Shown piece after piece: positions 22,267-33,589 of a DNA stretch of 46,799 bases. The stretch lies in IMG/VR virus record IMGVR_UViG_2703718778_000015. One strand, written 5' to 3'. The first letter of the stretch is position 1. Every line of letters begins with the position of its first letter. The position numbers and the translations under genes are program-made. Source of the stretch: a virus. Taxonomy: Duplodnaviria > Heunggongvirae > Uroviricota > Caudoviricetes. Below the pieces are notes generated by a model. It did not search any database, was not told the DNA's origin, and saw only the letters and a program-made list of their open reading frames with translations.

Positions 22267-22743
22267 CTACTTAATGCACTGAGTACGGATATATTCCTGC
22301 GCCCCTTCCAGTTGCTTCTGCATCGTCATCAGCCGCTCTCTGAGGGTGAAATAATCCCGTGTAACGGTGTCTGCCAGTTGGGGGCCGGTTGCATTATCCA
22401 CGCGGGCGGTGCCGGTGGCTTCACGCACGGGACCTGGACAGGTGGCGTTGATACGCAGGCGCTTACGACCAGCGGCAACATCAGCACGCAGAGTTTCATT
22501 TTCAGCTCTCGCATCGGCTAATTCCCTCGAGTATTTTGCATCGAGCGCAGCAACATCACGCTGGCGCACCTGCATGTCAGTAATGGTGGCATTCGCCTGT
22601 TCCAGCTCTCTGGCTTTTTTATCGCGCTGCGCTTTGTAGGTGATGGCGTTATCGCGGTAATGATTCAGCCCCAGACTAAGCGCACCACAGACCACCAGCA
22701 GAATAACAGTAAACGCGGAAAGAATTCGGTTTATGCTCACCAT
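22267..22743 (-). CDS. Rz: Spanin, inner-membrane subunit Rz
   Basis: 158 aa; close match to lambda Rz as remembered (NHYRDNAITYKAQRDK, MQxRQRDVAALDAKY, RDYFTLRERLxTMQKQLEG). Confidence 0.92.
   Translation of the reverse strand: MVSINRILSAFTVILLVVCGALSLGLNHYRDNAITYKAQRDKKARELEQANATITDMQVRQRDVAALDAKYSRELADARAENETLRADVAAGRKRLRINATCPGPVREATGTARVDNATGPQLADTVTRDYFTLRERLMTMQKQLEGAQEYIRTQCIK
22329..22514 (-). CDS. Rz1: Spanin, outer-membrane lipoprotein subunit Rz1, embedded in the +1 frame of Rz
   Basis: 61 aa; lipobox LVVSAC and Pro-rich core (CVKPPAPPAWIMQPAPNWQTPLHGIISPSE) closely resembling lambda Rz1 as remembered. Confidence 0.88.
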   Translation of the reverse strand: MRELKMKLCVLMLPLVVSACVSTPPVQVPCVKPPAPPAWIMQPAPNWQTPLHGIISPSESG

Positions 22744-22751
22744 GCCCCCTG

Positions 22752-23519
22752 TCAGAAATTGCAGATTATCAGCTCGCTGACACTGCTTGTCTTACCACGT
22801 GGTACAGTATAACGATGAGCAACATGATGAATATTCATCCCCTCAAACAATCGTCTCATTTCCTGCGAATCGTTCAGGGATATAATCATTTTGCCTTTTA
22901 TTGTGCGGGCAAGTTCTGCCATGCGCTCATAATTGCAGAATGAAAAATCAATGCCGTAACCACCATCCAACCAATACGGAGGATCGCAGTAAAACAGCGT
23001 TGTCGGGCGGTCATACCGTGCGATACAGACCTCCCAGTCAAGGTGTTCAATAGTTGCCCGCGCCAGCCGATCACGGGCTTCCTGCAATAACTGCTCTGTA
23101 TTCCCGGGGATTATCTGCGGTCTGTGAGTTTTAACTCCAAATGCCCGACTGTATGCTCTTCCGCCATACGCGCACTTCTGGATAAAAAAGAAACGGACAG
23201 CCCGCTGGATATCCGTCATGTACTCCGTGTGCTGATTTATCACCTCATTCCACATCTCACGACTGGCGAGCATCCACTGAAACTGGCGGGAAAATTCCTC
23301 CTGGTGGTACTTCACCACACGGTAGAGATTAACGATATCACTGTTTATATCGTTGATGATTTCAGCGCAGCTCGGTTTTTTCATAAAGAACAGTGCCGCA
23401 CCGCCACAGAACGGTTCCACATACAGAGTGTGCTCAGGAAATAACGGCAGAATATGTTTTGCCAGACGACGCTTCCCTCCTAACCACGGGAGAAACGGTT
23501 TTGCAGAGTTATTATTCAT
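22752..23519 (-). CDS. DNA N6-adenine methyltransferase (Dam-like, D12 class), orphan
   Basis: 255 aa; motif I FCGGAALFF and catalytic DPPY (YCDPPYWLDGGYG); no adjacent restriction endonuclease candidate. Confidence 0.85.
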   Translation of the reverse strand: MNNNSAKPFLPWLGGKRRLAKHILPLFPEHTLYVEPFCGGAALFFMKKPSCAEIINDINSDIVNLYRVVKYHQEEFSRQFQWMLASREMWNEVINQHTEYMTDIQRAVRFFFIQKCAYGGRAYSRAFGVKTHRPQIIPGNTEQLLQEARDRLARATIEHLDWEVCIARYDRPTTLFYCDPPYWLDGGYGIDFSFCNYERMAELARTIKGKMIISLNDSQEMRRLFEGMNIHHVAHRYTVPRGKTSSVSELIICNF

Positions 23520-23788
23520 TTCACCACCAGCGGATTTCCCGGATTAGAACCGCAATTGCCACAATGCGAATGGCAAATGCCGTTGCCCGAATAAATTCAG
23601 TACTCATCTGTTTAAATAAATTGTCGTCATCAGTCACTGTCACCCCACCAGCCCTGCCGAAGTCAACGCCATCCAGGCTATGGAAAGAAAAAGAGCAACC
23701 ATCATTAGCGAAAATGAAACGCCGACAATCACACAGATGGTCTTCGCCAGCGTTATGAGTTTGCCTGATATCATTAGACGCCACTCCA

Positions 23789-24358
23789 TCAATCCGTCTT
23801 TGTGATTTTTCCTTTGCCTGTATCAGCCAGGACAAAACCAATCAGCAGATTCGCTTCGTTTATCAACGTGCGAATTTTTGATACATGCGCGGCTTTAACC
23901 AGTTTCCATTCGTTTAACCCTGTACCAAACAGACTGGCAATGTTTTTATCCCGTTTCATGTCAGCGCATGCCTGGTTGAGTTCTTCCATCACGCTCATTT
24001 GACGAGGATTAACGACAAAACCCTTCGTCCAGTATTCATAGAGAACATCGTCGCACTCTTCCTGATACTGGATAACCTTGTCGCGGATTCCGGGTTTTAC
24101 TTTGTTGGGATTGATGGTTTGTAACCAGCCTGCAAGTTTTCGAAGTGGCAGGGACACCATATTGCGTCGTTTCCCGTCCTCAGCAACCATAACGATTTCC
24201 GTTATAGTTGACGCAAAACGCTGTCTTAACTTAGCCAACTGTGATTGCCAGGCCAGCCCCATCCCCGCAACGACAGGTTTCATGGGAACGTATGGTTCGC
24301 CGTTATGGTTAACCACATAAAGAGAATCGCCGTGAAACGGCACGGTTATCATATTCAT
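23789..24358 (-). CDS. Putative antirepressor (Ant-like N-terminal domain protein)
   Basis: 189 aa; the N-terminus (ITVPFHGDSLYVVNHNGEPYVPMKPVVAGMGLAWQSQ) resembles the AntA/AntB-type N-terminal domain of phage antirepressors as I remember it; sits between R and Rz. Confidence 0.6.
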   Translation of the reverse strand: MNMITVPFHGDSLYVVNHNGEPYVPMKPVVAGMGLAWQSQLAKLRQRFASTITEIVMVAEDGKRRNMVSLPLRKLAGWLQTINPNKVKPGIRDKVIQYQEECDDVLYEYWTKGFVVNPRQMSVMEELNQACADMKRDKNIASLFGTGLNEWKLVKAAHVSKIRTLINEANLLIGFVLADTGKGKITKTD

Positions 24359-24631
24359 CGGTTATTTCCTTTTAGTGATGAACCCTGCGCACAGGAATAA
24401 CCAGCCCAAAGAGGGTTAACCAGACCACTGCCGGTTATCCACCAGGGCTCATCCTGAAAGGTTCTTTGGTTTATTTACGCTTGTGCGAAGCGCAGAAATG
24501 CCAAAGGCACCATTACGGTGCCTCTGCGTGAAACAATGTTCCTGACTTTATTCACTTAGGTTTTGCCAGTTCGCAGGATTTCGTGTTATCCGTCCGCGTT
24601 GGTCAACGTCATTTTTCAGCAAAATATTCTG

Positions 24632-25165
24632 CTACCTGTCGATACCCCAGCATGCCAGCGCACTCTCCTGGTCGCGACGGGATACCTGACCGTAGCAATT
24701 ATTTGAGCGAATACGGCAGTCTCTGCCACCGTCCTTAATCCACCAGCGAATCGCTTCGCAGGCACCTTTTCGATCGCCTGCATTAATTCGTTTATAAAAC
24801 GTCGACGGGAAACACTTACCGGGGCCAATGTTGTAAGGACAGAATGACGCAATTCCCGCTTTCTGGGGTTCGGTCAGCGGCACTCTGATGTTTTTCTCCA
24901 CCCACGCCAGCGCTTTATCACGCTCAATGGCGTTAACCTGGTCGCATTTTTCCTTCGACAGTTTCATGCCAGGAACAACAGGTTTGCCATCCACCACCGT
25001 GGCACCCCGGCAGATGGTCCATATACCAGAACCATCACGGTATGCTGTGGTGTGGTTACCTTCTTTTTCATCCAGAAACTGGTCGAGAATATCAGGCGCA
25101 GGCGCCCCTGCGGCAATCAGCGCCAGAACGGCAGCCGACAGGCCGTATTTGATTTTGGTGTTCAT
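24632..25165 (-). CDS. R: SAR endolysin R (T4-lysozyme-like muramidase with signal-anchor-release N-terminus)
   Basis: 177 aa; Gly/Ala-rich weakly hydrophobic N-terminus (YGLSAAVLALIAAGAPAP) followed by the E-x8-D-x5-T catalytic triad (EGNHTTAYRDGSGIWTICRG). Confidence 0.88.
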   Translation of the reverse strand: MNTKIKYGLSAAVLALIAAGAPAPDILDQFLDEKEGNHTTAYRDGSGIWTICRGATVVDGKPVVPGMKLSKEKCDQVNAIERDKALAWVEKNIRVPLTEPQKAGIASFCPYNIGPGKCFPSTFYKRINAGDRKGACEAIRWWIKDGGRDCRIRSNNCYGQVSRRDQESALACWGIDR

Positions 25166-25296
25166 GGATATTTATCAGGATTTATCGGTTCCGAATCCCT
25201 GGATATGTTAAGCCTTCACCCCACCAGTGGTGGGCACTGGCGGGTTCTTAATTTCCCCGGATGATCGTGGATTACATTCCACCAGGAGATTACTTA

Positions 25297-25928
25297 TGCT
25301 TATCTATCCAGCGGCAGACCTCCGTTTACAGGGACGCAGAGCACAACCATGGGATAAAACAACCACTCATAAATATCGTCCCGGTCAATATTATGACTTT
25401 CGTAAACACCCGGAACTGATCGAGACACACCTTGAGGATTTTGTTGAATATTCAGACAGACAAGCGATTCAGACCTTTTTTTCTTTTGTTAAGTGGATCA
25501 ACAGCAATTCATCTGCATTCGAGAGCACGGACTGCATGTTTTCAGGAACACCAAAGGTTGATGAATACGCCCCGGTATTTGGTTGCACCCATGCGTCATC
25601 TGGCCGCTTCGAATTTTTGTTTCGCGATACGAAAATAAACCAAAATGAGCGAGCTGTCGGATGGGTACTTAACAAACTATCGCTCTACCTTCAGAAAGAA
25701 CGGCCCGATTTTTGTAAAGGAACCTTTGGCATCGTTCCCCTCATGACGGAATATACCGACTCCGGCAGTAACGAGTTCACCGGTTATCGTATTTGTGTCT
25801 ATTTCGATGCTTACGGGAATGGAACAGAGGATACCTGGACTTCTCTCAACATCATGTTTGATGGCCTCATGAAAGCCACCAAAAGAATGAGCAATGAAAC
25901 AATCACTGGCGAGATGCGTCCCCTTTAA
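25297..25928 (+). CDS. Hypothetical protein (about 210 aa), plus strand, in low-GC insertion between S and R
   Basis: Long ORF with AGGAGA RBS 6 nt upstream of the ATG; no recognisable motif; its 3' end overlaps the convergent ORF at 25677-26468 by about 250 bp. Confidence 0.4.
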
Positions 25929-26468
25929 AAAATTATCCAGAATTTCACTATTTGCAGAGCGCTCTCTGTTTTTTTGAATACGGAAACACTCTGCGAGATT
26001 TCTGCTCATCACTTTCCGGCAATAATCGTAAAACGCCGCGAACTGCTCATCACGGCGTTTTTTTTCACCTTCGGAAGGGATCTGCACCGACAGTTTTTTA
26101 TTCAGTTCAACGACGCTGTTCTCCAGTTTTTCAATGCGTGATTCGATATCATCTTTTTCTGACTGTATCGTGTTATATGCATTGTTAATTTGTATGGTAT
26201 ACCGCTCTTCTGAACAAAGGCGCTTTTCCGGCAACGGTTCGTTCCCTTCACATAACCCGGCAGCAATATCCATGAAAAACTGCTTCGCCTTCTTTTTCGC
26301 CTCAGCTTCGTAAAACTCCAGCGGGGCACCTTCAACACGATCAAGATCAATCACCACATTTGGCAACAACAGTGACGTATACCCACCAGTTTCCAGCGCC
26401 ACAGTAACAGTAATCTTATCCGGGTAAATATTTATCCCTTTAACAACCAGTTCGTATTGTTTATTCAT
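25677..26468 (-). CDS. Hypothetical protein (263 aa) immediately downstream of holin S
   Basis: ATG 3 nt after the S stop with a GGGAGAG RBS; predicted coiled-coil centre (IESRIEKLENSVVELNKKL); low-GC region; no recognisable catalytic motif. Confidence 0.5.
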   Translation of the reverse strand: MNKQYELVVKGINIYPDKITVTVALETGGYTSLLLPNVVIDLDRVEGAPLEFYEAEAKKKAKQFFMDIAAGLCEGNEPLPEKRLCSEERYTIQINNAYNTIQSEKDDIESRIEKLENSVVELNKKLSVQIPSEGEKKRRDEQFAAFYDYCRKVMSRNLAECFRIQKNRERSANSEILDNFLKGTHLASDCFIAHSFGGFHEAIKHDVERSPGILCSIPVSIEIDTNTITGELVTAGVGIFRHEGNDAKGSFTKIGPFFLKVER

Positions 26469-26471
26469 CGT

Positions 26472-26687
26472 CTACTCTCCCCGCGCCGCCTTACGCCGGT
26501 CTTCTTTAATTTTGAAATACAGGTTCGTCAGATATGTCAGCAGACCAAACAGCAGACTCCCCAGCACGCCTATTGCCGCCCACTGAGACGGGGAAACCCT
26601 GTCCAGCAACTGCAGGAACCAGTAGCCCGTTCCCACCGCTGACGTGGTGTATGACACACCTGTTGTGATTTTTTCCATCTGGTACAT
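26472..26687 (-). CDS. S: Pinholin S (phage 21 S21-type), dual-start motif
   Basis: 71 aa; near-identical over most of the length to S21 as remembered ([25 protein letters not shown]...[22 protein letters not shown]); Met1 and Met4 (MYQM) give the antiholin/holin dual start. Confidence 0.9.
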
Positions 26688-26762
26688 ACCCCGTCTCCCG
26701 CAATCCGGAAGCTCACAACAACAAGTGGGGCATCAGCTCACACCGACACCCCCTGCGCATGG

Positions 26763-27033
26763 TTACATCATCATTTCGCCGTCAGGCTGAGGCTCTTCAC
26801 TACCGTCAGGCTGAGACCCGACGCCATCTGAAACAGCACTGTCATCCGCAATGCCTTCCGGCTCCGGAACAGTCGGTGCGCCCAGCAGTTCATCCAGAAT
26901 GGCATCCACTTCTGCATCAAGACGCGCCTCAAGGTTCTGCCGAAGTTGCTGTTTCAGTGCGCTTCTGACTTCTTCAGAGCGCAGGACTTCCTTCACTGCC
27001 TCAGCAGTGACCAGCGATTTTATTTCTGACATA
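26763..27033 (-). CDS. Hypothetical acidic protein (about 90 aa)
   Basis: ORF from the internal Met (MSEIKSLV...); the longer ORF-track start overlaps the upstream gene; acidic C-terminus. Confidence 0.4.
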
Positions 27034-27057
27034 GGATTTTCTCGTTGAAAGGGGTTA

Positions 27058-27252
27058 TTAAGAAGGTTGTTCCGGAATGAGTGGGGCTTCTGTTTTTGCT
27101 CCGGCTGACTGACTGGCGCTGATTTTCTCTGCGGCCCTTTTATCAATCTGCCTGCGCCAGGAATCGCGCACTGCCCTGTACCCACCCGAAAGAAGATACA
27201 GCACACAGACCGCCGTACAGAAGTACAGCATCACCTGATGAATAAATGTCAT
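27058..27252 (-). CDS. Hypothetical small membrane protein (64 aa)
   Basis: N-terminal hydrophobic helix (VMLYFCTAVCVLYLL); function unknown. Confidence 0.35.
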   Translation of the reverse strand: MTFIHQVMLYFCTAVCVLYLLSGGYRAVRDSWRRQIDKRAAEKISASQSAGAKTEAPLIPEQPS

Positions 27253-27270
27253 AGTTTCTTACCGTTATGG

Positions 27271-27299
27271 TTGACAATGAGAACTGTTTTCATTTAAAA
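27271..27299 (+). promoter_or_regulatory. Sigma70-like promoter with perfect -35 (TTGACA, 17-bp spacer, TTAAAA/TAAAAA -10)
   Basis: Direct reading: ttgacaatgagaactgttttcatttaaaaa, in the intergenic gap between nanS-p and the 64-aa ORF. Confidence 0.4.
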
Positions 27300-27305
27300 A
27301 ACCAA

Positions 27306-27387
27306 TGTACGAAAGCATCTTTTCTTTACATTCTCCATTGGGATTACCTCCGCCAGCTTCCGTTCCTGCCGCTGGCGGTTTTTTTTT
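27306..27387 (+). ncRNA. Candidate small RNA of about 80 nt (promoter to intrinsic terminator), antisense orientation relative to the late operon
   Basis: Promoter above plus the terminator at 27349-27387; no ORF in the interval. Confidence 0.35.
27349..27387 (+). terminator. Intrinsic terminator on the plus strand
   Basis: ccgccagc-ttccgttcctgcc-gctggcgg followed by T9; no T-tract on the minus-strand side. Confidence 0.6.
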
Positions 27388-27392
27388 GCCGG

Positions 27393-29372
27393 TTATGCTG
27401 ATGCCCGGCTTTCGTTAACGTTGACAGTGACCGTATCAAGCAGTACCGGATACGTCGCTTTTGTCCCCGTGATATCTGTCAGCGTCAGCGTATCTGCTGT
27501 AAAGCCATCATTTGTCCACATCACAAGGTCAAATGCCGTCTGCTCTGCACCATCAATCACCGGAACAACTCTTTCGCTGTTATTTCCCGCAAAGCGGAAA
27601 ACAACCGTATGCCAGTTATGGTCAAACGTACCAAATGTACCCAGTTGTGCATTCGAGGAGCCCTTCTGGTGCATCAGATTAAGATTTGATGTATCCGTCT
27701 GAAGGAAGAATGATGCCAGCATACTGTTTGCTGTCGCGCCTGACGCCCACTGCGACACCGGCCAGTAGATACCAAAGACAAACTGTCCGTTCACCAGCTC
27801 GCTTCCATCCGGAATTTTGAACCGTACGGCAATTTCCCCCCCCTTGCTGAGAAGATTTTTTGCCTCCTCCACTGCAATAGTACGGAACATTTTCCAGGAC
27901 GTCAGTTTACCGGGCTGTTTTTCCAGTCGCAGCGCTTTCCGTCCACCGTCATCAGTCACAGTGCCTTTGCCGCCGGAAGCGCCCCACTGCTGCTCTGTCA
28001 ATGCACCATTTCCACTGTTCGCATCATATTCAGCCACCGTCCTGGTACTGCTCACGGCCTCATCATGACCAGTACCAGCAACACCGCCATCCTGCGGTTT
28101 CTCAACATCCGGTGTCCCCGGACTGACAGGCGTTGTACCACCCGACTGCGGTGCGCTCTGCCCGGTAAGGAACGATAATGTCCGCCCGGCGTACTGCAAA
28201 ATGGCACCTGCCAGGCGGTCTGAAACAAGGCCTCTTCGCGCCCATGAACTGAAGTGCGTTTTACGATCGGCTGCCGTCCAGTTACTGGCAGTGCGTGACG
28301 CAGCGCCATAGTATCCCGCCGGGATAATGTCCGGATCTTCTGACGGCTCGTTTGTCGGCACATTCACACCATGCTCATCCGTCATCAACGGCACAAAGTG
28401 AATATTCTGCGCAGCTTTTCCTTTATACCCACCGTAAACCGCCTCATACGGCACTGCATACCTTTCCTTCCAGTAGTACGTGGTATCACCGCAAATCCAC
28501 GGGACGCTGGCCGTTGTCCCGCCAGTACACTGCTCTGCCACATCTGCCAGTTCCGTACGGAACTGATTTACCATGGCAAGGAAAAGCGCATTGTGTTCTG
28601 CATGTCTCCCCGAACTGACATCTTTTTCTCCCTGCATCCAGATCACTGATAACAGCACGTTCTTCGGATTTTTCTTCAGGGCCGCACGGGTTCTGCTGAC
28701 CAGGTCATGATACAGCGGTTTATCCGCCCCCCACAGGGACGAGCCTGCGGTCGCTCCCGACGCTTCGTTAAACGCCCCCTCGGCCCCCGCAGTAAATCCC
28801 GAATCGCCACGGCCACATGGAACAAGAAGGATACCCGCATTCGCAGGCATAAACGGCAGCAGCTTTTTGGCAACATGCAGAGCATGCCCCACACAACCGT
28901 ACTGTCCCTTACTCAGGTCTGCATGAGGATGATTCAGGTTACTCATATCCTGCACATCATGCAGACAGTGGTCTGCCGGAATGATGTCGTTATATTTACA
29001 GGCGGCACCACCCGGCGTCACCGTACTGCGACGCGCCAGCTGTTTAATACGCGGGTCCGGACGGTCATATGTCTCCGGCAGCGGCAGCCCTTCACCAAAA
29101 GACATTGAGTTTGACTGCCCCGCCAGAACAACAACAAAGTAATACTCCGGTTCGCTGGTGGTGCTGATAACTGTGCCTTCTCCATCCGACGGCTTCACCA
29201 CCACAGGTGTGGTGACATCACCTTCCGCCGCAATGGCCTGCATCAGGGTATAAGGCGTGATGGCCACCGGGCTGCCAAATGGCTGCCACCCCTCCTTCAG
29301 TTTTTGAGTCAGTCGCTCCGCAAGGTCTGACGGCGACGCCGCCCTGACCACATCGTAGTGTTTAAATGTCAT
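27393..29372 (-). CDS. nanS-p: Sialate O-acetylesterase NanS-p-like protein (prophage-encoded)
   Basis: 659 aa; recognised as the esterase found between stx and the lysis genes in Stx-type prophages. The family call is from memory of those proteins and of the locus position, not a motif scan. Confidence 0.75.
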   Translation of the reverse strand: MTFKHYDVVRAASPSDLAERLTQKLKEGWQPFGSPVAITPYTLMQAIAAEGDVTTPVVVKPSDGEGTVISTTSEPEYYFVVVLAGQSNSMSFGEGLPLPETYDRPDPRIKQLARRSTVTPGGAACKYNDIIPADHCLHDVQDMSNLNHPHADLSKGQYGCVGHALHVAKKLLPFMPANAGILLVPCGRGDSGFTAGAEGAFNEASGATAGSSLWGADKPLYHDLVSRTRAALKKNPKNVLLSVIWMQGEKDVSSGRHAEHNALFLAMVNQFRTELADVAEQCTGGTTASVPWICGDTTYYWKERYAVPYEAVYGGYKGKAAQNIHFVPLMTDEHGVNVPTNEPSEDPDIIPAGYYGAASRTASNWTAADRKTHFSSWARRGLVSDRLAGAILQYAGRTLSFLTGQSAPQSGGTTPVSPGTPDVEKPQDGGVAGTGHDEAVSSTRTVAEYDANSGNGALTEQQWGASGGKGTVTDDGGRKALRLEKQPGKLTSWKMFRTIAVEEAKNLLSKGGEIAVRFKIPDGSELVNGQFVFGIYWPVSQWASGATANSMLASFFLQTDTSNLNLMHQKGSSNAQLGTFGTFDHNWHTVVFRFAGNNSERVVPVIDGAEQTAFDLVMWTNDGFTADTLTLTDITGTKATYPVLLDTVTVNVNESRASA

Positions 29373-29553
29373 GAATCCTCCCGGTCGGGATAATGTTGTG
29401 AGTCAGATAAGGAGCGAGCTGAAGTCCGGAAGTTACAGGACAATGGCAGGAGGAAGACTACAGCCCGCAATACGAAAAAGGCCGCGCAGTTGCGCAGCCT
29501 TATGAATTCTGGTTAAAATCCATTCGATTATAAAAATGTATATCTCATGCTGT

Positions 29554-29580
29554 TGCCCGAACCCACTCGGGCTTTTTTTT
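29554..29580 (+). terminator. Intrinsic terminator on the plus strand, within a cluster of GC-rich stem-loops
   Basis: gcccgaacccactcgggc followed by T8; the adjacent hairpin gcccctccggagaggggc (about 29595-29612) has a U-rich tail on the minus strand, making the pair bidirectional. Confidence 0.5.
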
Positions 29581-29944
29581 GCCCACAAGAAAGCCCCTCC
29601 GGAGAGGGGCTAAAGCCGCGTATCTGTATCATCATGCACATGGTGCCGGGTGCCTCCCGGTGAGTTCAGCCCGGTGCCACTAAACCCGCGTCATTCTCGT
29701 TTTGATAATCAGAGATTATACCGTCACCAGTCGCCCCTCCGCTCAGGGGGATTCACCATGCCAGTTTCTTTTAACAAACTCCCCGCAAACCAGACAACAG
29801 TCAACCGCCTGAATTGTGAGGTATTTAAAAATTTCAACGGGTAACTGATACCCTGCTAATCGCCTGATGCTTTCTTTTTCAGCAACGGGAAAGCAACAAC
29901 CACCACACCCATCAGCCGCCCATTTACCACAAATAAAAAAGCCT

Positions 29945-30142
29945 TCAGGACTGAAGGCGTCTGTAACAACCGAACTGATAGTCTGCCAGCCCAGCCATAA
30001 CAAGCTGGGTCAGTATTAACTGACAGCGTTCGCGTGAAAGGTACGTATTCTGTGCAATCTCCCCGACTGTCGCCGGTTCGGTGACGCTTAATTCATTAAA
30101 CACCACTCTGGCGGTTTCGGTCATATCCTGCTGTTTCAGCAT
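29945..30142 (-). CDS. Hypothetical small protein (65 aa), possible winged-helix fold, between tR'-like terminator and nanS-p
   Basis: ORF from the internal Met (MLKQQDMTETARVVF...); the upstream part of the ORF-track version overlaps the terminator hairpin; occupies the slot where stx genes sit in Stx phages. Confidence 0.4.
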   Translation of the reverse strand: MLKQQDMTETARVVFNELSVTEPATVGEIAQNTYLSRERCQLILTQLVMAGLADYQFGCYRRLQS

Positions 30143-30263
30143 GTCTTTTTCCCTTTTCCGGTTAACGTGACACACCAATAACTCTTGTCGAAAAAGCCAG
30201 CAAGCTGAAAGAACGGTATTAATAACCACCAGCGAATTTATTGCGCTGCTGTATATTACGGAC

Positions 30264-30288
30264 ACAAAAAAACCACCTTCCGGTGGCT
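30264..30288 (-). terminator. tR'-like intrinsic terminator about 75 bp downstream of the Q-like gene
   Basis: Minus strand gccaccggaaggtggc followed by T7; preceded by a second stem-loop (gcgaaa...tttcgc). Confidence 0.6.
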
Positions 30289-30359
30289 TCCTTGTGCGAA
30301 AAAAACTTGCATTTCGCCTCGCGATACAGCCTTGCGAAGCTTATACGGATTGAAGCAGT

Positions 30360-30932
30360 TTATTGATCAGTTTGCAACATTTTTTTCTCTGTAACAAAAG
30401 CCATACGCATGGGGGCATGTAACATAAATTCAGATATCCCCAACCACTGATCAATTCGGCGTCTGCACGTAACCAACGTCCACTCAGGATGATCTGCATT
30501 TAACCTTTCGGCCATTTTCAGTTTGCTCATTCCCCGTCCTTCGTACCTTTGCCGGAGAATATTGATTAGTCCGGGATATTCCCCAAGCACCTCACTGATA
30601 ACGCGATCAATAATCAACGCCTCTGTGTCTGTACAATGTGACAACCAGCTCTTCTGCTTCCCTCTGGTCATATCCCGAAAAAATGCCTCAAGTTCCGGTT
30701 TTTCCAGCCCGGATTTCTTCATTCTGCGTAAAACCTCATTAACTGCTGTTTTCGTCAGCTTTTTCGAAACCAGTAACCGGTTAAACATATTTCCGGATTT
30801 ACCCCCACCGATATACGACCACCGCCCCCACATCCGTAATTTCCCCTGGATCCAGACTGCTTCCAGCGTGTTCAGACGTAAATGTTCGCCGCTTTTGCCT
30901 GTAATTTCCGGATATATCATATTTACGCTCAC
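30360..30932 (-). CDS. Putative late-gene antiterminator (Q-like), assigned mainly by position
   Basis: 190 aa; sits between rusA and the tR'-like terminator/lysis region; does not resemble lambda Q as remembered, so family membership is unverified. Confidence 0.45.
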   Translation of the reverse strand: MSVNMIYPEITGKSGEHLRLNTLEAVWIQGKLRMWGRWSYIGGGKSGNMFNRLLVSKKLTKTAVNEVLRRMKKSGLEKPELEAFFRDMTRGKQKSWLSHCTDTEALIIDRVISEVLGEYPGLINILRQRYEGRGMSKLKMAERLNADHPEWTLVTCRRRIDQWLGISEFMLHAPMRMAFVTEKKMLQTDQ

Positions 30933-31288
30933 TCACTCTCAATTTTGTAAATCTTCACACCCAGCCGTCCACCAGATACTGGCTGACCACGTACAATATT
31001 GATTTCATCAAACTGCTCGTCATCAATGAGCACTCCCGCATGCGTCAGCGCATCCAGCGGTGCTTTCAGAATGTTGTCCAGGTCGCGACGACGCTTATCC
31101 GGTGGCTCTGCAATCACCTTTATCACCAGCCTTCCGGACAGGCTTAATTTCAGCCGCTGCTGGCGAACAATAAGCGCCACAGCCCGGCGATAACGCTTTC
31201 CCTCCTCCGAGATAAAATATGTGCTGCCACGGCGTCGCCAGTAAGTGTTCACCGTCGGCGGGTAAGGTAAAACCAAATCTATGAGCAT
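30929..31288 (-). CDS. rusA: Holliday junction resolvase RusA
   Basis: 119 aa; RusA-like motifs (PPTVNTYWRRRG, DKRRRDLDNILKAPLDALTHAGVLIDDEQ). Confidence 0.88.
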   Translation of the reverse strand: MLIDLVLPYPPTVNTYWRRRGSTYFISEEGKRYRRAVALIVRQQRLKLSLSGRLVIKVIAEPPDKRRRDLDNILKAPLDALTHAGVLIDDEQFDEINIVRGQPVSGGRLGVKIYKIESE

Positions 31289-31300
31289 CAGTCACCTCTT

Positions 31301-32350
31301 TTACCCAAGCACGCCAGTTGCAAAGGCGTGATCAAGAAAACGAAAAATTAAATCAATCTGAGAACCATGCTTTTCTTCGAACGCCAGCGGATCCGCATGA
31401 AGTTCGTTGTGATGTTCCCGGCACAACGGTAGCGTGAAAATATCGTGGGCCTTTGTTCCCATCCCTCCCTGACCGTGACCAATCAGGTGATGGGGATCGT
31501 CGGCTGGCTGACCACAACACGCACACGGCTGTGTCTTCACCCAGCGCGTATATTTCTCATTTACCCAACGGCGACGTTTAGGTCGCCTCATGAAAGATTC
31601 CGGAGACTCCGGATCAACGGTGATGCATACCACCGTCTTTTCCTGTGGTGGGTTCTGTTGCTGGCGGGCGTGAGACGGCGGCGCAATATTTTTTGTGCGC
31701 TGCTTCAGTATGCTGGTGGCGGTCTGCTCTCCCGGTATGATGTCGCTTTCGCGATACACCGAGCGGATTTTTTCCGCACGTAACCCCAGAGAACGACGTA
31801 ATACTGCCTCCGGAAGCGCGTCCGCCACCTGATTGCAGACCGCCCACCAGGATAATTCAGCCAGCGACAATTCCCGCTCCTGCGTGCCATTCATTGCATG
31901 GCGTATGACGTCAATCATCCATGCTGACAGGTTTTGATGAGCAAGTTGCCCGAGTGATTCGGATGTCTGGTCACGCAGCTGGTTGTCACAGTGCCAGCAC
32001 AACACCATCGCGCCAGCGCCATAACGGTGAATGACGGTTTCACTGTGGTGATAATCGCCGTGTGGCCACTGGCAGGATTTAACATGGCGCAGTAACCAGT
32101 CAGACAATGCGCCAGCGCCACCAGCAGCACGAATCACTCGTTCGTCGCTGAAAAATGGCAGTAATGATTTATCCTCCGCCAGCGGCTGGCGAACGGCAGG
32201 AACGCCCCCGGACGGCATATTACGCATGCTTTTCGGTTCCGGCTCCACCAGTACCCGGGTATTTTGGAATACCGGCATGGATTCATGGCCCGGCTTAACG
32301 ATCACCAGCCCGAGTTCTGGCACAAGAACAGGTCGAAGTAATACCCGCAC
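31301..32350 (-). CDS. DUF968-family protein (YdfU-like) with C-terminal HNH-like Cys/His cluster
   Basis: 349 aa; C-terminal CACCGQPADDPHHLIGHGQGGMGTKAHDIFTLPLCREHHNELH is typical of the DUF968 proteins of lambdoid nin regions. Confidence 0.75.
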   Translation of the reverse strand: MRVLLRPVLVPELGLVIVKPGHESMPVFQNTRVLVEPEPKSMRNMPSGGVPAVRQPLAEDKSLLPFFSDERVIRAAGGAGALSDWLLRHVKSCQWPHGDYHHSETVIHRYGAGAMVLCWHCDNQLRDQTSESLGQLAHQNLSAWMIDVIRHAMNGTQERELSLAELSWWAVCNQVADALPEAVLRRSLGLRAEKIRSVYRESDIIPGEQTATSILKQRTKNIAPPSHARQQQNPPQEKTVVCITVDPESPESFMRRPKRRRWVNEKYTRWVKTQPCACCGQPADDPHHLIGHGQGGMGTKAHDIFTLPLCREHHNELHADPLAFEEKHGSQIDLIFRFLDHAFATGVLG

Positions 32351-32351
32351 G

Positions 32352-32630
32352 TTACCTCCAGATACGTTGCTGGAATGTGCGGGATGGACGCGGTGGGCGC
32401 TCGGAGTAAGGAAGCCTGACGGAGATTATCCAGTGACGATAATCGAGGCTGAGGGCTTTCTTAATCTCGTATCCGTGTCTGCGGTAGCACTGAATTAGCC
32501 ACTCGGCCTGTTCTTCAGTGCATGGGGGATGCTGGAACCAGTCAGATTTGAAAGTGCGGGAACGCCGCCCGTGCCTGCTGGCAAAGACGGCAGAATCATC
32601 AGAATTGTGTAATTTGGTATCGTGCGCCAT
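32352..32630 (-). CDS. Hypothetical protein (about 92 aa)
   Basis: ORF from the internal Met (MAHDTKLH...) downstream of the hok terminator; stop overlaps the DUF968 start; weak RBS. Confidence 0.4.
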   Translation of the reverse strand: MAHDTKLHNSDDSAVFASRHGRRSRTFKSDWFQHPPCTEEQAEWLIQCYRRHGYEIKKALSLDYRHWIISVRLPYSERPPRPSRTFQQRIWR

Positions 32631-32702
32631 CGGTTGTCTCTGCTGGCGCAGCAGGTGCCAGTTGTTCAGGCTGGCGTGCGAATTGTAAACCAGAATGCCA
32701 GG

Positions 32703-32728
32703 AAAAAACAAAACCCGCCGAAGCGGGT
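32703..32728 (-). terminator. Intrinsic terminator downstream of hok
   Basis: Minus strand acccgcttcggcgggt followed by tttgtttttt. Confidence 0.65.
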
Positions 32729-32797
32729 TACGTGCGGGTGCGTTGAGGATGCCTGACACATCAGAGGTGGCGAGGGATTTCTCCCTCGCCGGGTCTC

Positions 32798-32953
32798 TTA
32801 CTCCTCAGGTTCGTAAACTGTGAAGACAGCGACCTCCGTCTGGCCGGTTCGGATTCGTACCTCGCAGAGGTCTTTCCTCGTTACCAGTGCCGTCACTATG
32901 ACGGTTAAACAGATGACGATCAGGGCGATTAACATCGCCTTTTGCTGCTTCAT
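32798..32953 (-). CDS. hok: Hok-family type I toxin (small membrane peptide)
   Basis: 51 aa, MKQQKAMLIALIVICLTVIVTALVTRKDLCEVRIRTGQTEVAVFTVYEPEE, one residue from HokD/RelF as remembered; strong AAGGAGAAG RBS. Confidence 0.9.
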   Translation of the reverse strand: MKQQKAMLIALIVICLTVIVTALVTRKDLCEVRIRTGQTEVAVFTVYEPEE

Positions 32954-33244
32954 AGCCTGCTTCTCCTTGCCTTTCGGCACGTAAGAGGCTAACCTAGATT
33001 TGCCGTTCATAGATTGAGCCTCAGATTAATGTTAAGCGTCTTGCAGGACGCGTAATGTTAACTGGGGCTTTTCTCTATCTGCCTTTTGGTATTCATGCCT
33101 GAGACAGATAGCCTCAAGCACCCGCAGCAATTCTACTTAACTATCCTTTCCCCGCAAATCGTTTTTATCCCCAGCGACAAATCGAATACACCACCAGCGC
33201 CACCGCCATTGCGATCCCTACCGTTGTGAATGCCTCAGGCCAGG

Positions 33245-33589
33245 TCATCGTAAAACATCCTCTGCGCTTATCAGTCCGTTTCGCTTCAGGTAGTCCATCG
33301 CCTTACCCGGCAATTTACAGTCCGGCTTCGTTTTCCTCAGTTGCCAGGTTAACTGCTTTACCAGCATGGTTAACTCGTCGACCAGACGCTGATGTCCCAC
33401 TGGTTTGTATTCATGCAATTTACCGGCTGGCTCTGCTGCCAGCGATGCCAGTGCGATTTCCAGAACAGCAATATCCATCTTATATGTGCGGATGATGTCA
33501 TGGTCGTTTGTGCCCGGTATGCACAGTCTCTGTGCTTCAATAGTCTCCTCTGCGTGAGCTATTAACTGCTCTCTGGTAAAAGTGGTCAT
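33245..33589 (-). CDS. Hypothetical protein (114 aa), paralogous to the ORF at 34103-34528
   Basis: N-terminal segment [15 protein letters not shown]...[12 protein letters not shown] resembles MTELTKEQLIEEAKL...FKIALTSLEAEP of the neighbouring ORF. Confidence 0.5.

Follow-up and report, generated by a model that had tools for sequence, protein, structure and literature searches.

Prophages of Staphylococcus aureus carry a module in which Tha, the larger protein, is made in the lysogen and is counteracted by Ith, which is encoded by a small gene on the complementary strand (Rostol et al., 2024; PMC11087260). The locus of BstA, a prophage defence gene, holds an element, aba, that spares the carrier prophage in its lytic cycle (Owen et al., 2021; PMC8585504). 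Antisense overlapping genes have been described in E. coli and Pseudomonas, where pop/ompA (PMC7103648) and olg1/olg2 (PMC8850804) are presented in abstracts, as are the phage Fc02 genes below, as novel or evolutionarily novel. In phage Fc02, a gene that is transcribed with the repressor in the lysogen overlaps a gene of the lytic operon on the opposite strand (olg1/gene 10), and exclusion activity is reported both for gene 10 and for a small open reading frame (ORF) overlapping olg1 (PMC9936078). Residues 1–72 of the K-12 protein YdfR bind the N-terminal catalytic half of RNase E, and YdfR co-purifies with RNA (PMC13232886). Here we compare with these systems an interval of 1306 nt (positions 25166–26471) in the window, by which we mean the whole 46,799-nucleotide stretch of the virus record IMGVR_UViG_2703718778_000015. 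The interval lies between the holin gene S and the endolysin gene R of an E. coli prophage. On its plus strand is an unannotated gene of 210 aa, here called A, and on its minus strand, convergent with A, is an ORF of 263 aa whose C-terminal part, B, runs antisense to the 3' part of A (Table 1).

We consider the interval to be, very probably, a composite of a resident ydfR-family gene and a mobile two-gene cassette, A/B, whose members share DNA. Judged by its homologues, which other phages carry as a gene by itself, the 263-aa ORF ends in a small antisense gene, and the overlap is a conserved feature of the cassette, which an earlier reading of the window from its letters and ORFs (hereafter the sequence-only reading) had missed. 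The arrangement of the two ORFs exceeds what chance would give by two indications: both have homologues, and antisense stops are unevenly spread within A.

The overlapping frames A and B

Gene A is almost certainly a genuine coding gene. Full-length homologues of 210–219 aa with 53–65% identity occur in Salmonella and in metagenomes, and a profile search of a representative library collected 251 clusters of the family at E<=1e-3, typically 200–235 aa long, with members in Deltaproteobacteria, Nitrospira, Acidobacteria and Verrucomicrobia. The plus-strand ORF could in its longest form begin at GTG 25227 (233 aa); ATG 25296, which gives the 210-aa form, was taken as the start of A because the homologues begin there. 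An AlphaFold 2 (AF2) model built from 60 diverse sequences reached a predicted local distance difference test score (pLDDT) of 93.1 and a predicted template modelling score (pTM) of 0.90, and over residues 121–200, which make up most of the overlap, the mean pLDDT of 10-residue blocks was 83–98. Neither a HEPN nor any other known domain was detectable in A. Pfam, NCBIfam, PHROGs and PADLOC returned no match for A or for 59 relatives, a profile search of A against PDB sequences found none, and Foldseek of the model against BFVD gave no informative fold match (template modelling score, TM<=0.35). No system component of PADLOC-DB v2 was matched by A, the 263-aa ORF, P0003, P0137 or P0142; the database yielded only a weak REase_II match, to P0006 (E=0.01).

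All GenBank phage and RefSeq records inspected leave A without annotation, an omission explained by the fact that annotation pipelines forbid long overlaps. GenBank phage records and RefSeq/PGAP annotate the minus-strand ORF only, RefSeq under the name 'DUF1327 domain-containing protein'. If these databases were right, only that ORF would be real and the plus-strand ORF would be spurious. As far as sequence evidence goes this view is refuted, and we give it a negligible probability: 210-aa homologues of A are found in unrelated contexts and phyla, the diverse alignment yields a high-confidence AF2 model, and A has a strong ribosome-binding site (RBS). In addition, the late strand of the window reads S, ydfR::B, 511 nt antisense to the 5' two-thirds of A, and R, and these 511 nt would stay non-coding without A.

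The frame antisense to A contains five stops across the first 128 codons of A and none across the last 82. The codons of A and B are in exact antisense register, since 25677 minus 25296 is 381. When 11 lineages spanning 37–100% A identity were tested, this register frame was free of stops over the last 81–90 A codons in ten, with 4–15 antisense stops in the upstream A codons and with one gene as low as 40% in guanine-plus-cytosine (GC) content; in eight lineages A codon 127/128 marks the last of these stops. Synonymous shuffling of Leu and Ser codons within each gene gave p=0.0001–0.35 per lineage and a combined p=2e-10 over ten lineages. The exception is L005, a decayed Salmonella copy in which the B frame is closed by stops and A is intact.

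In the window B has no start codon of its own, and its sequence is bound to be translated whenever the ydfR-type ORF is, because the two are in frame with no intervening stop. Outside E. coli, stand-alone forms of B begin at an ATG located 5–8 codons past the A stop in the closer lineages (L010–L049) and 9–11 codons past it in L054 and L056. A GGAG-type Shine-Dalgarno motif precedes this ATG in most of the stand-alone lineages (L010–L056, L050, L052); it is weak in L048 and absent in L008. The stand-alone products are 89–104 aa long, and those of 89–100 aa terminate in GPFYLK(V/I)xR (alignment A4; A3 and A5, which are broader, had diverged too far to serve in searches for loci). The 104-aa versions were called independently by gene callers (P0128, P0129) and have strong Shine-Dalgarno sequences. 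B is found alone just after a holin gene (P0128; L052/L053) and fused to parts of YdfR in four ways (products of 263, 305 and 161 aa, plus L012). B is intact in L050 and L051, where A is broken by an internal deletion and a frame change. In L050 (5001–5478), A codons 16–96 are deleted, the 104-aa B is preceded by AGGAGG, and the prophage holin is of the Phage_holin_8 type.

Selection on the overlap was examined through the codons of A. At identical A residues, codon identity was about 0.42 outside the overlap and 0.55–0.62 inside (Mann-Whitney p=7e-7 and 2e-8), and the excess peaks at A codons 121–165. Amino acid identity of A was about equal in the two parts, which speaks against a recently exchanged 3' end; as it is no higher in the overlap than elsewhere, recent recombination does not account for the excess. 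The excess was absent from comparisons with L005. In three close pairs, 5 of the 45 changes outside the overlap and 9 of the 28 within it were synonymous in the antisense frame (p=0.035).

Several observations weigh against a coding role for B. In the same three close pairs the synonymous rate of A does not differ between the overlap and the rest of the gene (p=0.74). The comparison of L052 with L050 gives 4 synonymous and 14 non-synonymous codon changes in the B frame, and 9 and 9 in the A frame, so that A is the frame that looks constrained. L054 and L056 have an open frame, yet no excess of codon identity, and Pfam and PDB profile searches with B found no domain or match. Constraint on B is thus clear at deep divergence and weak or invisible at short divergence. 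Antisense frames in register are the most prone to long shadow ORFs, and the permutation p values are modest in some lineages (0.19, 0.35). Most of this favours a reading in which only A is functional: the cassette would have inserted into a ydfR-type gene, or recombined with one, the ydfR frame would run on by accident through the antisense strand of A, and the open frame elsewhere would be due to codon usage, to an antisense regulatory RNA or to useless but tolerated ORFs. We consider that explanation unlikely. The control within each gene, in which upstream stops contrast with an open tail in ten lineages, is strong; the ATG and Shine-Dalgarno motif of B are conserved in the short 3' flank of A; conservation of synonymous sites is confined to the overlap at equal amino acid divergence of A in both parts; and B is kept exactly and in frame where A has been deleted or broken (L012, L050). 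On balance B is likely to be a genuine coding gene.

The frame appears to have arisen by overprinting within a prophage-borne clade of A. Among A relatives at 28–36% identity, antisense stops interrupt the tail in L057, L060, L062–L064 and L066, from which it follows that B is clade-restricted, as expected for overprinting. L065 has no antisense stop from codon 134 to the last of its 243 codons, in a gene of 56% GC. The antisense frame is likewise open in L059, but that gene has 61% GC and the product is unlike B.

Composite structure and mobility of the cassette

Neither protein of the interval had shown a recognisable motif in the sequence-only reading, which took both genes to be of unknown function. 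That description holds for A, whose family is uncharacterised, and fails for the N-terminal part of the 263-aa protein, where residues 1–96 match DUF1327 (PF07041) with E=7.5e-34 and 116.3 bits against a curated cut-off of 25. The ORF is therefore a member of the known ydfR family, a common gene of lysis cassettes. A weak Pfam match to a spectrin repeat (coiled-coil-type) follows at residues 102–133, and a match to PHROG 2091 spans residues 1–168. Alignment of family members of 169, 183, 296 and 305 aa shows conservation up to 'AECF' and divergence thereafter, with homology ending at about residue 165. Beyond this point the proteins take one of three forms: a short end (169–183 aa), an unrelated C-domain of about 125 residues (287–296 aa) or a B-type tail. 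L012 (1–733) encodes an in-frame three-part chimera composed of the YdfR N-part, B (A codons 130–210 only) and the C-domain of the 296-aa YdfR type, which points to an exchange of C-terminal modules between YdfR-type proteins at the conserved ...AECF junction.

Four related phage records, Stx1_14040, Stx2_14040, PhiR12_1 and Stx2 phage 86, were compared at this position. All four have an ORF directly after S, so S and R are not adjacent in this group, contrary to the contiguity on which the sequence-only reading had built. The ORF contains the DUF1327 domain in three of them; Stx2_14040 has in the slot a 161-aa variant without it. PhiR12_1 and Stx2 phage 86 also carry a small plus-strand ORF between the post-S gene and R. 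At the DNA level, the segment that varies between the window and PhiR12_1 is 25242–26018 only, and homology resumes at 26019. The idea of a discrete 1.3-kb insertion has to be given up accordingly: the S-proximal ~450 nt (26019–26468) belong to the DUF1327/YdfR gene. This goes part of the way towards what the sequence-only reading had itself named as its refutation.

At least 119 complete E. coli genomes, among them those of O26, O145 and O157 pathogens, contain the whole interval at >=99% identity, and Stx1a/Stx2a phages have it as well; in E. coli O26:H11 11368 the identical segment is NC_013361.1:2196582–2197887. Homologues of A with 37–65% identity lie in quite different places: between a Kiwa system and the holin gene of a P22-like Salmonella prophage (L008), in lambda-like prophages between the tail genes I and J (L010, L035, L036, L044, L047, L056), beside genes for tape-measure proteins (L048, L049), in a remnant of a Salmonella prophage linked to sodC (L005), and directly after a P21-type holin gene with no DUF1327 gene (L052, L053). 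The plus-strand gene thus behaves as horizontally mobile, which bears out its earlier description as a moron. In every late-operon context examined (S–R, holin, I/J and tape-measure), A is opposite to the late genes and B is co-directional with them. The cassette is therefore mobile, and its orientation relative to the late genes is fixed. It recurs in many prophages and probably serves as a module that can be switched between lysogeny and lysis.

These positions also bear on whether YdfR-B, A or both might modulate the action of the holin or the endolysin. Such a role in lysis timing or regulation would suit the location between S and R, a slot that DUF1327 genes habitually fill, and the translational coupling of the 263-aa ORF to S, with its ATG 3 nt past the S stop and GGGGAGAG upstream. 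It is nevertheless very unlikely, as the A/B cassette also occupies sites that have no lysis genes in their vicinity (the junction of I and J, the surroundings of tape-measure genes and a prophage remnant), A is directed away from the late operon, and the sole biochemistry of a DUF1327 protein points to binding of RNase E and RNA rather than to lysis (PMC13232886). The sequence-only reading had offered lysis timing together with defence or exclusion; the occurrence of the cassette far from lysis genes speaks against the first, and the second fits the context described below.

Features of the interval and its surroundings

The genes S and R, the 263-aa ORF, the ~210-aa ORF with its AGGAGA RBS and the ~250-bp overlap were all recovered where the sequence-only reading had placed them (Table 1), and its impression of an AT-rich interval was correct: the GC content is 0.443 as opposed to 0.523 for the whole window, and only 2.9% of the 1306-nt windows are as low. 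The ydfR-like part, at 0.433, is as AT-rich as the remainder of the interval.

Table 1. Features in and around the interval between S and R (positions in the window).
Feature	Position	Strand	Basis
S, phage-21-type holin/pinholin, 71 aa	26472–26687	-	PF04971 (Phage_holin_2_1), E=7.2e-33
263-aa ORF, ydfR-family gene fused in frame to B	25677–26468	-	ORF list; stop codon 25677–25679
DUF1327/YdfR N-terminal domain, residues 1–96 of the 263-aa ORF	26181–26468	-	PF07041
YdfR-type middle segment, residues ~97–160, ending at conserved ...FAAFYDYCRKVMSRNLAECF	25991–26180	-	Family alignment
B, small antisense frame, residues ~160–263 of the 263-aa ORF	25680–25990	-	Stand-alone homologues; alignment A4
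A, gene of 210 aa without annotation; broad, uncharacterised family	25296–25928	+	Full-length homologues; AF2 model
Shine-Dalgarno AGGAGA of A, ATG 6 nt further on	25284–25289	+	Read from the sequence
Dual-coding overlap, 252 nt	25677–25928	both	A codons 128–210 and A stop; B residues 181–263 (encoded inside A) and B stop
Terminator-like hairpin and T-run (GCAGAGCGCTCTCTGT TTTTTTG)	25954–25976	+	Just past the A stop, within the minus-strand ORF
Conserved element upstream of A, candidate promoter/operator	25174–25209	+	Recurs before A in tail-located cassettes
Endolysin R, 177 aa	24632–25165	-	PF00959 (Phage_lysozyme), E=1e-24

The candidate promoter/operator before A consists of ATCAGGAT at 25174–25181 and CCCTGGATATGTT at 25197–25209, with a -10-like TATGTT at 25204–25209. 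A fuller inverted repeat precedes A in tail-located cassettes, as CTGAT-N5-ATCAG in L010 and L011 and as CTGTT-N5-ATCAG in L036 and L056, and the rest of the intergenic DNA has diverged around it in these four. Tail-located cassettes also have a minus-strand terminator just past the region upstream of A. A LexA box was considered for the inverted repeat and rejected, the spacing being 15 nt rather than 16. In PhiR12_1 and Stx2 phage 86 the same element precedes other plus-strand cargos, which suggests that this slot combines a fixed promoter with exchangeable cargo. The segment shared by these two phages (L002 2501–2880, L003 2501–2950) corresponds to 25166–25241 of the window and includes ATCAGGAT...TATGTT; their cargos are unrelated ORFs of 86 and 104 aa, without a Pfam match and convergent with the DUF1327 gene. 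Pfam did not reproduce the label 'DUF1823' that the depositor gave to the plus-strand ORF of PhiR12_1. A near-perfect palindrome, CCCACCAGTGGTGGG (25220–25234), which is conserved with minor differences in PhiR12_1 and phage 86, lies in what is presumed to be the 5' leader of A. A search of 24000–27500 against Rfam at relaxed threshold gave nothing credible. A weak full-length match to the model of Esr41, a small RNA of enterohaemorrhagic E. coli, at 27312–27386 on the plus strand (23 bits, where the gathering score is 102; E=0.29) falls in the gap that separates nanS-p from the small ORFs preceding S and is probably due to chance.

In the remainder of the lysis cassette, S belongs by its Pfam match to the class II holins of the P21 S family, and the N-terminus of R, MNTKIKYGLSAAVLALIAAGAPAP, is hydrophobic and rich in Ala and Gly, and on inspection looks to be of the signal-anchor-release (SAR) type. 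A spanin-like pair, a candidate for Rz/Rz1, is formed by a 158-aa ORF (22267–22743) and an embedded 61-aa lipoprotein-like ORF (22329–22514); a related phage record annotates an endopeptidase at this position. The cassette has a second break at 22267–24358, where two genes lie between R and the spanin-like pair: the antirepressor Ant (23789–24358; P22_AR_N, E=9e-45) and a 255-aa ORF (22752–23519) that resembles Dam-type DNA methyltransferases by inspection. The closest phage records are Stx1a-converting phages, and a nanS-p/yjhS esterase gene is present at 27393–29372. Upstream of nanS-p (window 29400–33500) no ORF of at least 80 aa resembling a Shiga toxin subunit was listed, and the prophage may be an stx-negative relative.

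Proposed function and comparison with known systems

Distant relatives of A are found beside genes of defence type. In L057 (2–1852), P0137, which is 31% identical to A, lies on the same strand 25 nt downstream of a short prokaryotic Argonaute (pAgo) gene (PADLOC pAgo_I, E=1.8e-122), and the A family may include pAgo-associated partners. Another relative appears to share an operon with genes for a radical SAM enzyme and a PDC-M41A-like protein (L059 1647–4621). Others adjoin a PDC-S01 AAA_14/DUF4143 ATPase (L064 3971–6019), a DUF4238 protein (L066 3893–5611), or SocA/Panacea and an NsnC-like gene (L054 106–1865). PemK is likewise encoded next to a distant relative, and Kiwa is within 3 kb of A in L008.

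The mechanism that we propose draws on the orientation rule, on the physical inseparability of the two genes and on these neighbours. We take A, a member of a widespread uncharacterised family, to be a folded protein of the cytoplasm. In the lysogen it would be expressed under a small promoter/operator of its own and would act in defence, in exclusion or as an effector resembling a toxin. Once the prophage is induced, late transcription would cross the whole of A in antisense, and convergent transcription together with antisense pairing would damp A. The same late transcript would supply B, which would neutralise residual A protein and so spare the lytic growth of the prophage itself. In the window B has lost its own start and would be made as the C-terminal part of the 263-aa YdfR fusion, translated right after the holin. 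Because they share DNA, A and B are inseparable by recombination. We infer expression timing, the A–B interaction and the defence function from strand orientation relative to the late genes and from context. Two results count against this proposal. The defence neighbours of A relatives amount to a handful of loci and not to a statistical enrichment, and a sigma-70 consensus scan of 24900–26800 found no promoter, hence none for A. We give the composite account as a whole, with A as the lysogen effector and B as its late antagonist, about an even chance. The functional account taken by itself, in which A is made in the lysogen and late transcription silences it and supplies B, is more tentative, and we lean slightly towards doubting it.

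A pair of inseparable genes, one small and one larger, is also what an addiction module would look like. A and B would then be toxin and antidote, in either order, and overlap and convergent transcription would stabilise the cassette or the prophage instead of protecting against other phages. Toxin-antitoxin genes near distant relatives (SocA/Panacea, PemK) and the promiscuous movement of the cassette between prophage positions agree with this. Neither protein, however, resembles a known toxin or antitoxin family. A alone is tolerated, given the distant relatives without B and the intact A of L005, where B is closed; L050, conversely, retains B with a broken A; and no promoter specific to B is evident in late operons, unlike what would be expected of an antitoxin in constant demand. 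We therefore regard a toxin-antitoxin module as quite improbable, and keep the effector and late antagonist as the preferred reading.

Taken further, A/B might represent a new family of prophage defence or abortive-infection modules in which an immunity protein is overprinted on its effector and the direction of transcription acts as the switch. In the E. coli form, the antidote would have been captured by a YdfR protein that binds RNase E and is made with the holin, and would form its C-terminal domain, and the wider A family might be an unrecognised defence effector or sensor fold. This extension is speculative, and we hold it to be rather unlikely. The locus is a strong candidate for a rare type of gene arrangement. 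If B is confirmed, the overlap would be an unusually well-conserved antisense protein-coding overlap for bacteria and phages, kept across A at 37–53% identity. The locus lends itself to experiment: with the codons in register, silent changes in one gene suffice to inactivate the other, and relatives without B provide a built-in natural control. The annotation gap is of some consequence too, since A is omitted although the interval is present in E. coli pathogens and Stx phages, and the cassette offers a first handle on an unannotated protein family of 251 clusters.

Of the described systems, YdfR of the Qin prophage (DUF1327, PF07041) is related to part of the locus. The N-terminal 96 residues of the 263-aa protein match the family model, and the gene likewise follows the holin gene directly. 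K-12 YdfR, however, has 103 aa, and the 263-aa protein adds a longer middle segment and an unrelated tail of about 100 residues, B, which is written against another gene and, in other phages, forms a small gene of its own.

The long opposite-strand coding overlaps of pop/ompA, olg1/olg2 and phage Fc02 resemble A/B in having been missed by annotation pipelines and in the apparent overprinting of the younger gene. They differ in that the B frame is kept across A at the identities given above and travels as a mobile cassette, and in that A/B is known from sequence.

The closest parallel in logic is Tha/Ith, where a small gene on the opposite strand overlaps the transcription unit of the effector, just as B is antisense within A. 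The two systems have no relation in sequence or fold: Tha is an RNase of the HEPN type, and the searches detected neither this domain nor any other shared one in A or B. Further, ith is an antisense gene nested in an operon, with overlap at the level of transcripts, whereas A and B share 83 codons of DNA; ith has its own constitutive promoter, whereas B is in the late operon; and function has been demonstrated for Tha/Ith and is proposed from context for A/B. BstA is unrelated to A, for which a defence activity is our proposal, and aba is a DNA element, not a protein. A/B thus falls outside the families of Tha/Ith, Fc02 olg1/gene 10 and BstA/aba, and these systems serve as precedent for its logic.

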